Virus record (IMG/VR): IMGVR_UViG_2576861234_000002
DNA length: 64,000 bases
Source: an uncultured virus (IMG/VR IMGVR_UViG_2576861234_000002)
Taxonomy: Duplodnaviria > Heunggongvirae > Uroviricota > Caudoviricetes
Reading direction: 5' to 3' (one strand)
In this document: one piece after another, positions 50,308 to 52,021 of the stretch
Position numbering within the stretch: position 1 is the stretch's first letter
Layout: each line of letters starts with the position of its first letter
Notes under the pieces: model-generated
Told to the model about the DNA's origin: nothing
The model's database searches: none
Seen by the model: only the letters and a program-made list of their open reading frames with translations
Program-made: the position numbers and the translations under genes

Positions 50308-50450
50308 GAGTTTTAATATAAAATTACTTACCACTTAAAAATAAAAAACCTATAGAATCAAGGTTTTGAACCTCATCGTTGTCAATAACATCTCATATAA
50401 AATAAAATTTTAGGGACTTTTCAGGGACTCGAGACCCTACATTTAGACAT

Positions 50451-50575
50451 AAAAAAATAACCACACTCCTAAATTAATAGGTGGTGTGGTTTTGTTGGTT
50501 GTGTAGGAATAAAAAAGATGCGACCGTCGCAACAGTTAATTTAAAGTACACTCCGCAGATGTGTACCGCTATTTG
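50451..50575 (-). ncRNA. Putative sRNA cassette D (about 125 nt)
   Basis: ATGTTATAAT at 50582-50591; hairpins GTACAC/GTGTAC and TGCGA/TCGCA; 3' 52 nt identical to 2318-2369. Confidence 0.55.
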
Positions 50576-50675
50576 TTTATAATTATAACATAAAATATAA
50601 ATGCGCCTATTAAGATTTAATTTTAGGTTATTAAATGATTGTTTTATAGAACCCAACTCTAGTTGGCGAGTGTTA

Positions 50676-51050
50676 TTATGACCTGTGGGTCTTATGATCT
50701 GTGTCAATTTTAATGATATTAAAATATGCATTATTGTCATAAAAACCAAATAATCTAAACTGCGATTTATCAAAACCGTAATGCAAGATTTCTAATTGGG
50801 AGTATTTCTCTTTTATTGGTCCTTTTGTCCTCAAATATAGTTTATCTACTTCTGTTATACTTAAATCTTTATATACTGTATACTCTAAGAATTTATGCAA
50901 ACCATCTGTCACCTTTTTGGGTTTCTTTGTTTTAAAGCAAAAATTGTTTTCTAATTCTGTTCCTAATGCAATTTTAAATTTTCTTGCTTTATAATTAGCT
51001 AATTTTGTTCCCTTAGCTGTGTGTTTTTTCTCAACTTTAGTAAGTTTCAT
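50676..51050 (-). CDS. Putative RNase-type toxin paired with a Panacea antitoxin
   Basis: Basic 124-aa protein with FRLFGFY...IIKIDTDH, RelE-like; abuts the antitoxin stop codon. Confidence 0.65.
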   Translation of the reverse strand: MKLTKVEKKHTAKGTKLANYKARKFKIALGTELENNFCFKTKKPKKVTDGLHKFLEYTVYKDLSITEVDKLYLRTKGPIKEKYSQLEILHYGFDKSQFRLFGFYDNNAYFNIIKIDTDHKTHRS

Positions 51051-51500
51051 TTAGTCACCTAAATAAATTGAAGAATAATAACTTTGCATATCCTCAAACT
51101 TGATAATATTATTAGACGTCTCGGTCTCGCCTAAACCTTTTCGTTGGTTTAGCCACGGTGCTTCTTCATGAGTAAGTGCTTCTAATTCATTCCCACTCAA
51201 GTGTCCATACGTTTCTATAACAGAATCTAAAATTTCTTTTTCTTTATCTGAAAAACTATATTCGACATTTACCTCTGGTTTATCTATTTCGTTCCAACCA
51301 TATCTCTTATATTGCTGATAAAGATCAGGTGAAACTGGTCCATGAACCCATGCTTCAAAGTGAGTATCCTCGATTAACCTTTCATTTAATAACGCATTGC
51401 ACCACGCTTCAGCATAATAAGAAAGTTTTTGTAATTTTTTTGGAGTAATATCTTCACCATTTTCGATAAAATACTTGGCTACTTCATTTATACTAATCAT
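51051..51500 (-). CDS. Panacea-domain (DUF4065/SocA) antitoxin
   Basis: KLQKLSYY, FEAWVHGPV and LEALTHEEAPW motifs; RBS AAGGAGG. Confidence 0.9.
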   Translation of the reverse strand: MISINEVAKYFIENGEDITPKKLQKLSYYAEAWCNALLNERLIEDTHFEAWVHGPVSPDLYQQYKRYGWNEIDKPEVNVEYSFSDKEKEILDSVIETYGHLSGNELEALTHEEAPWLNQRKGLGETETSNNIIKFEDMQSYYSSIYLGD

Positions 51501-51568
51501 CTTAATCCCTCCTTTATTCTAATTATACATTATAATACTTGTTTTATGTAAATAATTTTAACTTATAG

Positions 51569-51825
51569 AAAAATAACCACCCAGCAACTAGTATGGGTGG
51601 TTAAGATGTGCCTTTAGCACTTAATAAAACCGATAATATGTTTTATTATGTCGCAAATATTTCAGCGACTTGTTATGTACCACCACACAAACTTACTCCC
51701 ATTCAGGAACACAGAGCTTTGTCGCTCGTCAGCAACGTCATATGAATTCTCAGTTCATGTTGTGGCGACACTTTAAACAGTCTGTGCCAGTAGCGACCGA
51801 GTCATTTCAAGAATGACCATTTCAC
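51569..51825 (-). ncRNA. Putative structured RNA cassette C (about 255 nt)
   Basis: ATGTTATAAT at 51832-51841; many stems; terminator at 51569-51602; no credible ORF. Confidence 0.6.
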
Positions 51826-51841
51826 ATTTATATTATAACAT

Positions 51842-51945
51842 AAAAACCACCCAGCAACTAGTATGGGTGGTTTAAATATGCAGTCAGCTTCTTACTGCTT
51901 CACGCAAGTAAGTCCTCTGCATAAACGGAATGGTTACCGTGAATA
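51842..51945 (-). ncRNA. Putative sRNA cassette B (about 100 nt)
   Basis: ATGTTATAAT at 51951-51960; stems ACGG/CCGT, TATGCAG/CTGCATA and CTTACT..GC/GCAGTAAG; terminator at 51842-51872. Confidence 0.6.
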
Positions 51946-51960
51946 ATTACATTATAACAT

Positions 51961-52006
51961 AAAAAATAGGCAAGTACCGAAGTACCTGCCATATGATGTG
52001 GTGGAT
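51961..52006 (-). ncRNA. Putative tiny sRNA cassette A (about 45 nt), also the lysin terminator
   Basis: ATGTTATAAT at 52011-52020 right after the lysin stop; C-rich leader and a SprY-type terminator. Confidence 0.45.
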
Positions 52007-52021
52007 GTTAATTATAACATA

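Follow-up and report, generated by a model that had tools for sequence, protein, structure and literature searches.

A probable row of exchangeable small-RNA cassettes at the lysin-to-attR end of a Dubowvirus-like Staphylococcus aureus prophage

Results

The array region and its boxes

We studied positions 50441-52021, minus strand, of a 64-kb stretch of DNA (the window; IMG/VR record IMGVR_UViG_2576861234_000002), where prophage 2 carries a series of short units behind its lysin gene. By its homologies it belongs to a Dubowvirus-like Staphylococcus aureus prophage, of which it forms the lysin-to-attR end. A preliminary description had read it as a head-to-tail array in which four exact copies of the 10-mer ATGTTATAAT, an extended -10 box of the form TGnTATAAT, each precede a unit without open reading frames (ORFs) that ends in its own terminator. 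The four minus-strand copies are where that description put them, and their contexts (the lysin stop, terminator T-runs and a short T run) are as it read them. Boxes and units run as follows.

52011-52020, minus strand: box 1, ATGTTATAAT, starting one base past the lysin stop (52024-52022)
51961-52003, minus strand: unit 1, about 43 nt, made up of nothing but terminator hairpin A (51990-51969) with its T-run; fold -14.7 kcal/mol
51951-51960, minus strand: box 2, ATGTTATAAT, abutting the T-run of the terminator with the hairpin at 51990-51969; homologous to the box ahead of srn_9344 in phage phiNM2
51842-51943, minus strand: unit 2, a short srn_9344 allele with a 33-nt deletion relative to phiNM2, closed by terminator B
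51832-51841, minus strand: box 3, ATGTTATAAT, abutting the T-run of a terminator with its hairpin at about 51873-51847; homologous to the box ahead of srn_9345/S808
51569-51824, minus strand: unit 3, about 256 nt, of which the 5' 150 nt (51824-51679) are srn_9345/S808, 98% to phi11, and the 3' part an alternative module
50582-50591, minus strand: box 4, ATGTTATAAT, with a short T run just before it and unit 4 next
50511-50579, minus strand: unit 4 core, 65-70 nt, with hairpin 1 (50567-50545), a terminator (50531-50519) and a T-run

By the ORF list and a terminator scan, every box-preceded unit is ORF-less and closed by a hairpin and T-run, as had been claimed. Counted from a start 7-8 nt past the box up to the end of the T-run, units 1 to 4 measure about 43, 102, 256 and 120 nt, and their fold z scores against shuffles are -4.82, -5.56, -3.35 and -3.70.

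The array region is a real, non-chance feature. Exact ATGTTATAAT occurs 7 times in the window against 0.81 +/- 0.81 expected, none of 100 shuffles reaches 7, and four of the seven copies fall on the minus strand within 1.6 kb. The looser TGnTATAAT has six minus-strand sites in the 64 kb, four of them in the same 1.6 kb. A promoter scan demanding a -35 hexamer returned 11 sites against 14.3 expected and missed the boxes, a scan of this kind being uninformative for extended -10 promoters. The remaining ATGTTATAAT copies in the window are at 2543-2552 and 46062-46071 (minus strand) and at 11064-11073 (plus strand). The copy at 46062-46071 is followed 25 nt later by the start codon (ATG) of a small hydrophobic ORF. 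A ribosome-binding site lies in between, and the copy appears to be an ordinary mRNA promoter that uses the same extended -10.

Transcript starts in the homologous phiNM2 cluster

Direct evidence on transcription comes from phiNM2. Between its lysin gene and isdB, phiNM2 has a 'condensed sRNA cluster' of small RNAs (sRNAs; Bronsard 2017, PMC5496865). On the lysin strand these are srn_9342 (145 or 249 nt), srn_9344 (131 nt) and srn_9345, which is S808 (314 nt); antisense to them are srn_9346 and srn_9343, the latter encoding a secreted 33-aa peptide and proposed to form a type I toxin-antitoxin (TA) pair with srn_9344 (PMC5496865). TEX-RACE gave three independent primary starts, those of srn_9344 and srn_9345 lying 22 and 19 nt past the 3' end of the preceding RNA, and an RNase Y mutant gave no maturation of a longer RNA (PMC5496865). 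On Northern blots Srn_9344 and Srn_9345 are present throughout growth, and deletion of srn_9342 has no polar effect on either (PMC12217887).

We placed the published coordinates on the phiNM2 record by its four terminators, which leaves the anchor uncertain by about 3 nt. The published starts of srn_9344 and srn_9345 then fall 7-12 nt past the TATAAT of two homologous ATGTTATAAT boxes, the distance for srn_9344 being 8-12 nt. The preliminary description had proposed looking for 5' ends 5-8 nt past the boxes, and for these homologous boxes, given the anchor of +/- about 3 nt, the check came out in its favor. Its claim of expression in the lysogen likewise holds for the relatives in phiNM2 (PMC5496865, PMC12217887), and would extend to the units of this strain by homology.

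Recurrence and probable exchange of units in other phage tails

An exact 29-mer of the terminator nearest the attachment (att) site is found in 99 IMG/VR stretches, which with the two copies of the window make 101 regions. Of these, 66 have a recognisable lysin C-terminus; we dropped the other 35, leaving 58 distinct tails. In the lysin-att part of these tails (81.8 kb) TGnTATAAT occurs 91 times forward and 0 times in reverse, against 3 forward and 16 reverse in the coding DNA just upstream (95.9 kb). The 40 loci with unit 4 (113.6 kb) have 104 forward and 6 reverse.

When the array region was compared with phage records, 266 of the 268 matching records were staphylococcal and none covers more than 27% of it, so the region is a mosaic. 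Against the 57 other tails its homology breakpoints cluster at 52013, 51990, 51961-51951, 51840, 51679/8, 51569-51557 and 50516-50490. Homology to the window begins at 51990 in 41 tails and exactly at 51840, the TG of box 3, in 24, while 51679/8 is a broken internal box. Partners change from tail to tail: srn_9345 follows either terminator B or the end of a coding sequence (CDS), after hairpin A comes srn_9344 or some other unit, and unit 1 comes after three lysin types, the TTAATATGTTATAAT junction trailing three different lysin C-terminus classes (U4, U9 and U10 joined to D4). Terminators are swapped between otherwise homologous units. In relatives the arrays also include SprC, diverged units that resemble srn_9344 and srn_9345, and, after a DUF3800 gene, the DUF3800-I RNA. 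In RNA-library contigs of a related strain, unit 3, the Panacea TA operon and unit 4 are joined to a phi11-type CDS end exactly at 51840.

An all-against-all comparison of the tails is noisy because short shared terminators yield many high-scoring segment pair ends. In that test 42 of the 269 3' ends of homology were no more than 12 nt from a box, compared with 10.4 +/- 3.1 expected. The proposal that breakpoints fall at terminator/-10 junctions is supported for this array by the comparison with the 57 tails; in the all-against-all test box enrichment is seen for 3' ends only. The recurrence of the units with changing partners supports the reading of the region as a modular array of what would be independent small transcription units.

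The RNA libraries that touch the window comprise one raw-read run with 2 reads and three further runs available as contigs. In one strain the depth is 204-315 over the array and TA operon and 4 over the lysin part; we rejected this contrast as evidence of expression, since that strain carries another lysin and the comparison is unfair.

Units 1 to 3

Unit 1 is best read as the lysin terminator. Its hairpin A also closes Srn_9342-long in phiNM2 and, by position, SprY in prophage 1 of the window. The start of srn_9342 within the lysin CDS has no counterpart in the window, where the lysin is of another type and hairpin A alone is shared.

From 51990 to 51679 the window is 85.5% identical to phiNM2. 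The 33 nt missing from unit 2 are one copy of an imperfect tandem repeat, and with their loss the antisense peptide ORF has 27 aa instead of 38 aa (counted from the published start, 22 aa instead of 33 aa):

51863-51946, plus strand: truncated homologue of the srn_9343 peptide ORF, 27 aa, opposite unit 2

Among the 58 tails this short allele (class D13) is found in the window only. The central hairpin of unit 2 is preserved in diverged relatives, with double changes in 6 of its 26 pairs.

Unit 3 matches about the first 150 nt of the 314-nt srn_9345; the 3' half is replaced by the alternative module, which terminates in another copy of terminator B. The junction of the two parts falls within a box-like TGGTA/CATAA (the stroke marks it), where phi11 has TGGTATAAT. 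We found the alternative module in 37 loci, in 31 of which it is fused to the srn_9345 5' module in the same way. The 3' half that srn_9345 has in phi11 and phiNM2 is itself the DUF3800-I RNA motif (48-54 bits; L003 2667-2782, L002 1769-1885, L054 2730-2843), known from Rfam RF02969 (Weinberg 2017, PMC5737381). In one relative (L054) a DUF3800 gene (Pfam 8e-14) is followed by a GTGTTATAAT box, DUF3800-I and then directly unit 4. Being boxed and adjoining unit 4 there, DUF3800-I is a member of the same kind of array, and srn_9345 looks like a fusion of two cassettes.

A Rfam search of 50441-52021 gave nothing at gathering score, even the best matches staying far under their thresholds (sau-63 with 17.4 bits against 100 and SpF01 with 27.2 against 55). 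We considered sau-63 as an identity for unit 2 and rejected it, the full-length alignment reaching only those 17.4 bits (Rfam, E up to 5, 50200-52200, where all matches were at chance level). The statement that all four units are undescribed did not survive for unit 1 (a terminator hairpin), unit 2 (srn_9344) and unit 3 (the 5' half of srn_9345/S808); for unit 4 it appears to hold as far as Rfam and the annotation of phage records go.

As a separate observation on naming, Rfam RF02897 'S808' matches (260-314 bits) inside phi11-type lysin CDSs (L003 1309-1563, L002 853-1107, L004 935-1189) and not in the srn_9345 region, which is S808 according to Liu 2018 and Bronsard 2017. One of the two, the Rfam seed or the name, must be in error.

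Unit 4, a candidate conserved RNA

Unit 4 has no Rfam match and is unannotated in all 19 phage records that bear it. These are phages of S. aureus, S. epidermidis, S. warneri, S. haemolyticus, S. pseudintermedius and Mammaliicoccus sciuri, and one record labelled as a Xanthomonas phage. The latter (OR842880.1, Xanthomonas phage SU1) holds unit 4 together with neighbouring staphylococcal phage sequence at 80-95% identity and is probably mislabelled or chimeric. A degenerate pattern search found unit 4 in 40 IMG/VR contigs. Two metagenome-assembled genome matches to the pattern were set aside as chance, about 17 chance matches being expected (18 specified bases, 596 Gb).

The 28 distinct copies have a mean identity of 87% and share two hairpins in which 98.7% of pair cells are paired. 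One pair runs through a C-G / U-G / U-A series and another through A-U / G-C, which is suggestive but thin support for covariation. The covariance model built from these copies (R1) scores the unit 4 of the window at 79.3 bits (E 7e-17), and gives 9 full matches (84-94 bits) in reference genomes of 8 other Staphylococcaceae species.

The surroundings of unit 4 vary far more, with 13 unrelated upstream classes, 16 downstream classes and 25 combinations in 41 loci. In 36 of the 41 a TGnTATAAT lies exactly 22 nt before the conserved core, and homology starts at the box. It stops at the T-run, which in 16 of the 41 loci is immediately followed by the next box. In the window and three other loci no further cassette follows unit 4, which continues into the att-proximal terminator. 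As far as the literature and Rfam searches reach (SRD and supplements lie outside them), unit 4 appears to be an undescribed conserved RNA candidate; it may bear an srn number in SRD.

Neither unit 1 nor unit 4 has a conserved opposite-strand ORF of at least 25 aa. A search of the window for the complement of the invariant unit 4 loop gave 6 matches against 6.5 expected, the sole exact match being unit 4 itself. In two IMG/VR contigs, known RNAs lie a few hundred bases downstream of unit 4: GOLLD RNA (262 bits; L124 2223-2627) and a SprC homologue (157 bits; L108 1982-2121).

Other features of the region

The remaining features around the units are the following.

52022-53443, minus strand: prophage 2 endolysin, CHAP + Amidase_3 + SH3b_P2 (Pfam)
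50676-51500, minus strand: TA cargo of two genes, with its own promoter region at 51501-51568
51051-51500, minus strand: antitoxin, 149 aa, PF13274 SocA_Panacea (E 4.5e-24, 86 bits)
50676-51050, minus strand: candidate toxin, 124 aa, of no known family
50451-50510, minus strand: att-proximal terminator segment, common to many S. aureus phage tails and equal to the 3' end of srn_9345 in phiNM2
50441-50450, minus strand: degenerate box ATGTCTAAAT, after the last terminator, at the phage/chromosome junction

A Panacea TA operon had been placed in one slot of the array, and the PF13274 match of the antitoxin bears this out. The candidate toxin has no Pfam, PADLOC or PHROG match. Among 50,697 phage records the pair has one close relative only, in Streptococcus anginosus phage Javan59, near its end (toxin 47% identity over 99%). 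RNA-library contigs of another strain carry the pair at about 97% identity.

The degenerate box had been counted as a fifth, less perfect element. It lies across the point where phage homology gives out: similarity to other phage tails stops at 50447-50454, which puts most of the box beyond the phage end, and the relatives read differently there. By this comparison ATGTCTAAAT is neither an array member nor conserved, and we drop it.

Prophage 1 had been said to show the same grammar with different cargo, which proved correct.

2330-2910, minus strand: prophage 1 array of the phiNM4 type, with SprY (by position, about 2746-2874), a mini hairpin unit, SprX, a box and a unit of about 210 nt

SprX (Rfam RF02672, 180 bits; 2552-2701, minus strand) is the only gathering-level Rfam match in the whole window. 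It stands between a terminator with TGTTATGAT, 8 nt after which SprX starts, and its own terminator, which is followed by ATGTTATAAT (2543-2552). With phiNM4, phage 77 and ROSA the prophage 1 tail shares 99.2% identity. Since the gap of 44 nt from hairpin A to SprX equals the published SprY-SprX2 spacing, SprY is probably present at about 2746-2874, by position and by the 99.2% tail identity with phiNM4, with no model match. The boxed unit of about 210 nt after SprX is probably the srn_0795/srn_9640 locus of Newman, and the att-proximal terminator segment recurs at about 2330-2400.

Discussion

Model of the array

We consider it likely that this region is an accessory, moron-type end of the prophage, made of head-to-tail autonomous cassettes that carry small RNAs and are reassorted between phages. 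A cassette would begin with a housekeeping-sigma extended -10 promoter (TGnTATAAT, with no -35), usually placed right after the T-run of the previous terminator, and would continue into a short non-coding RNA of 45-260 nt closed by its own intrinsic terminator. From the lysin gene the row would read terminator A, the short srn_9344 allele, the srn_9345 5' module with the alternative 3' module, the TA operon, unit 4 and the att terminator. Transcription in the lysogen independently of the silent late operon has been demonstrated for homologues and would apply to the window as well. The RNAs may act in trans as regulators or sponges of host RNAs, as SprX, SprY and Srn_9342 do. In some slots the RNA may instead be the partner of an antisense peptide gene (srn_9343/9344), and protein cargo such as the Panacea TA pair could fill slots in the same way. 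Cassettes would reassort between phages with breakpoints at the boxes or a few bases from them, either through the 10-15 nt of homology in the shared T-run and box or because only whole-cassette recombinants survive.

As to function, the preliminary description had suggested host-regulating sRNAs, sponges, or decoys of RNA-based defence. The first two hold for known array members, SprY being a sponge of RNAIII (PMC8501977) and Srn_9342 likewise a sponge or partner of this host RNA (PMC12217887), and could apply to the units of the window by analogy. The decoy reading is not supported.

Several of our results weigh against this model of autonomous, exchangeable cassettes. The tails are related by descent, so the strand-bias counts are inflated, and 53 of the 91 boxes have no preceding T-run, 24 of those 53 coming after a CDS end. 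The 10-mer is not specific to arrays, as the copy at 46062 precedes a small ORF like an ordinary mRNA promoter. Most breakpoints lie elsewhere than at boxes in the all-against-all test, where 227 of 269 homology 3' ends (more than 80%) are away from them and 5' starts are not clearly enriched (13 of 238 versus 8.1 +/- 2.7). Unit 1 is a terminator only, and box 1 may be a junction scar and not a working promoter. The covariation of unit 4 is thin, with double changes in 2 of 19 pairs, matched by 97 of 500 shuffles, among related sequences, and its 58-nt core taken alone folds no better than shuffles (z -1.69). Finally, the RNA evidence, 2 raw reads and contigs, shows no starts, ends or strand.

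Alternative explanations

Some of the units could be halves of type I TA or small-peptide modules, the RNA on the box strand serving as antisense antitoxin of a peptide gene on the opposite strand. The proposed srn_9343/srn_9344 pair with its secreted 33-aa peptide is of this kind, srn_9346 is antisense to the srn_9345 5' module (PMC5496865), and the window retains the related plus-strand ORF at 51863-51946 and has further plus-strand ORFs of 42-48 aa opposite unit 3. We find it unlikely as an account of the units, given that the peptide ORF of the window is down to 27 aa, or 22 aa counted from the published start, that the antisense RNAs are weakly expressed in Newman (PMC5496865), and that units 1 and 4 face no conserved ORF of the required length.

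The region might also be a heap of recombination scars, in which old cassettes, terminators and boxes have been left by illegitimate exchange and the pieces have no present function. A bare terminator behind a box (unit 1), a deletion of 33 nt that truncates the antisense ORF in an allele confined to this window among the 58 tails, a unit 3 fused through a broken box, and terminators swapped between otherwise homologous units all look like such debris. Decay of this sort fits poorly with a unit 4 that, between variable flanks on both sides, retains 87% identity and its pairing in different genera, with a fused unit 3 allele present in 31 loci, with the compensatory changes that keep the central hairpin of unit 2 in diverged relatives, or with the stable, abundant RNAs published for the homologues. 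We give this explanation little chance.

That the units are the long 3' untranslated region of a late lysin transcript, with sRNAs arising by read-through and processing and the boxes being incidental AT-rich sequence, is very improbable: phiNM2 Srn_9342 does start inside the lysin gene and read through the first terminator (PMC5496865), Liu 2018 lists S808 as 'own promoter + 3'UTR', and terminator A lies directly behind the lysin gene in the window, yet srn_9344 and srn_9345 have separate primary 5' ends by TEX-RACE and show no maturation in the RNase Y mutant (PMC5496865), the srn_9342 deletion leaves both unaffected (PMC12217887), chance would hardly produce a 91:0 strand bias of a near-consensus extended -10, and three strong terminators stand between the lysin gene and unit 4.

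Implications

Returning to the cassette model, the S. aureus prophage sRNAs SprX, SprY and Srn_9342 tune RNAIII and virulence-related genes, and the set that a strain has depends on this hypervariable phage end. The published cluster described as specific to Newman would become one case of a general grammar in which the extended -10 box of a cassette comes right after a terminator, and this grammar could be used for simple annotation of such RNAs and for prediction of their starts in any staphylococcal prophage. DUF3800-I, an orphan structured RNA, is now linked to the 3' half of a known sRNA gene, srn_9345. The field's understanding of phage morons is unchanged by these findings, and we regard their interest as moderate.

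A bolder and rather doubtful extension is that the terminator/TGnTATAAT junction, beyond its role as a promoter, is the exchange point of a Staphylococcaceae-wide temperate-phage cassette platform for sRNAs, TA pairs and DUF3800 with its RNA, and that unit 4, whose sequence hardly changes between S. aureus and Mammaliicoccus, represents a new class of functional RNA with a part in conflicts of phages with hosts or with other phages, and not in the regulation of host genes.

Comparison with known systems

The closest known system is the phiNM2 cluster. The array shares with it the lysin-to-attR location on the lysin strand, the strand logic, homologous boxes, the att-proximal terminator and an antisense peptide ORF; unit 2 corresponds to srn_9344, placed behind terminator A and a box, and the 5' half of unit 3 to srn_9345. 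It differs in that the window has another lysin family and hence lacks the srn_9342 body, keeping the last hairpin only. Additionally, its srn_9344 lacks 33 nt, another module replaces the 3' half of srn_9345 with the DUF3800-I motif, and the Panacea TA operon and unit 4 are inserted. DUF3800-I was not found in the window by Rfam, and unit 3 has the other 3' module in its place. Bronsard 2017 called the organisation of the cluster unique to Newman; the available text of that paper has no mention of a shared -10 box, and the words TATAAT, recombination and mosaic are absent from it (PMC5496865). Our literature search, which did not extend to supplements, figures and SRD, found no relevant description of a junction grammar in S. 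aureus prophages.

The SprY-SprX2 cluster of phi12 and phiNM4 (Le Huyen 2021, PMC8501977) also consists of adjacent, independently expressed prophage sRNAs behind a lysin gene. With SprY placed by position, it is present in prophage 1, and SprY closes with hairpin A as unit 1 does. None of the four units of prophage 2 is SprX or SprY.

Phage morons, as described for lambdoid phages, are promoter-gene-terminator cassettes expressed from the prophage. The array resembles them in its autonomous units with their own promoter and terminator, its permissive place at a genome end, its variability among close relatives and its predicted expression in the lysogen. By sequence, each unit has TGnTATAAT before it and a hairpin and T-run behind, and presence varies in close relatives, as seen in the coverage of at most 27% by any phage record and in the varied partners. 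Unlike morons, the cargo is mostly non-coding RNA and the cassettes stand in tandem with one shared junction sequence. An integron-like cassette platform would have a dedicated recombinase and a structured recombination site at every cassette boundary; the junction here is a T-run and a -10 box, with no conserved imperfect palindrome besides the terminators.

The array belongs to a kind that has already been published, namely the prophage sRNA clusters or moron arrays that follow the staphylococcal lysin gene. What appears to be new, as far as the literature searches reach (SRD and supplements being outside them), is the terminator/extended -10 junction with its strand bias, the cassette-wise reassortment and the unit 4 RNA.

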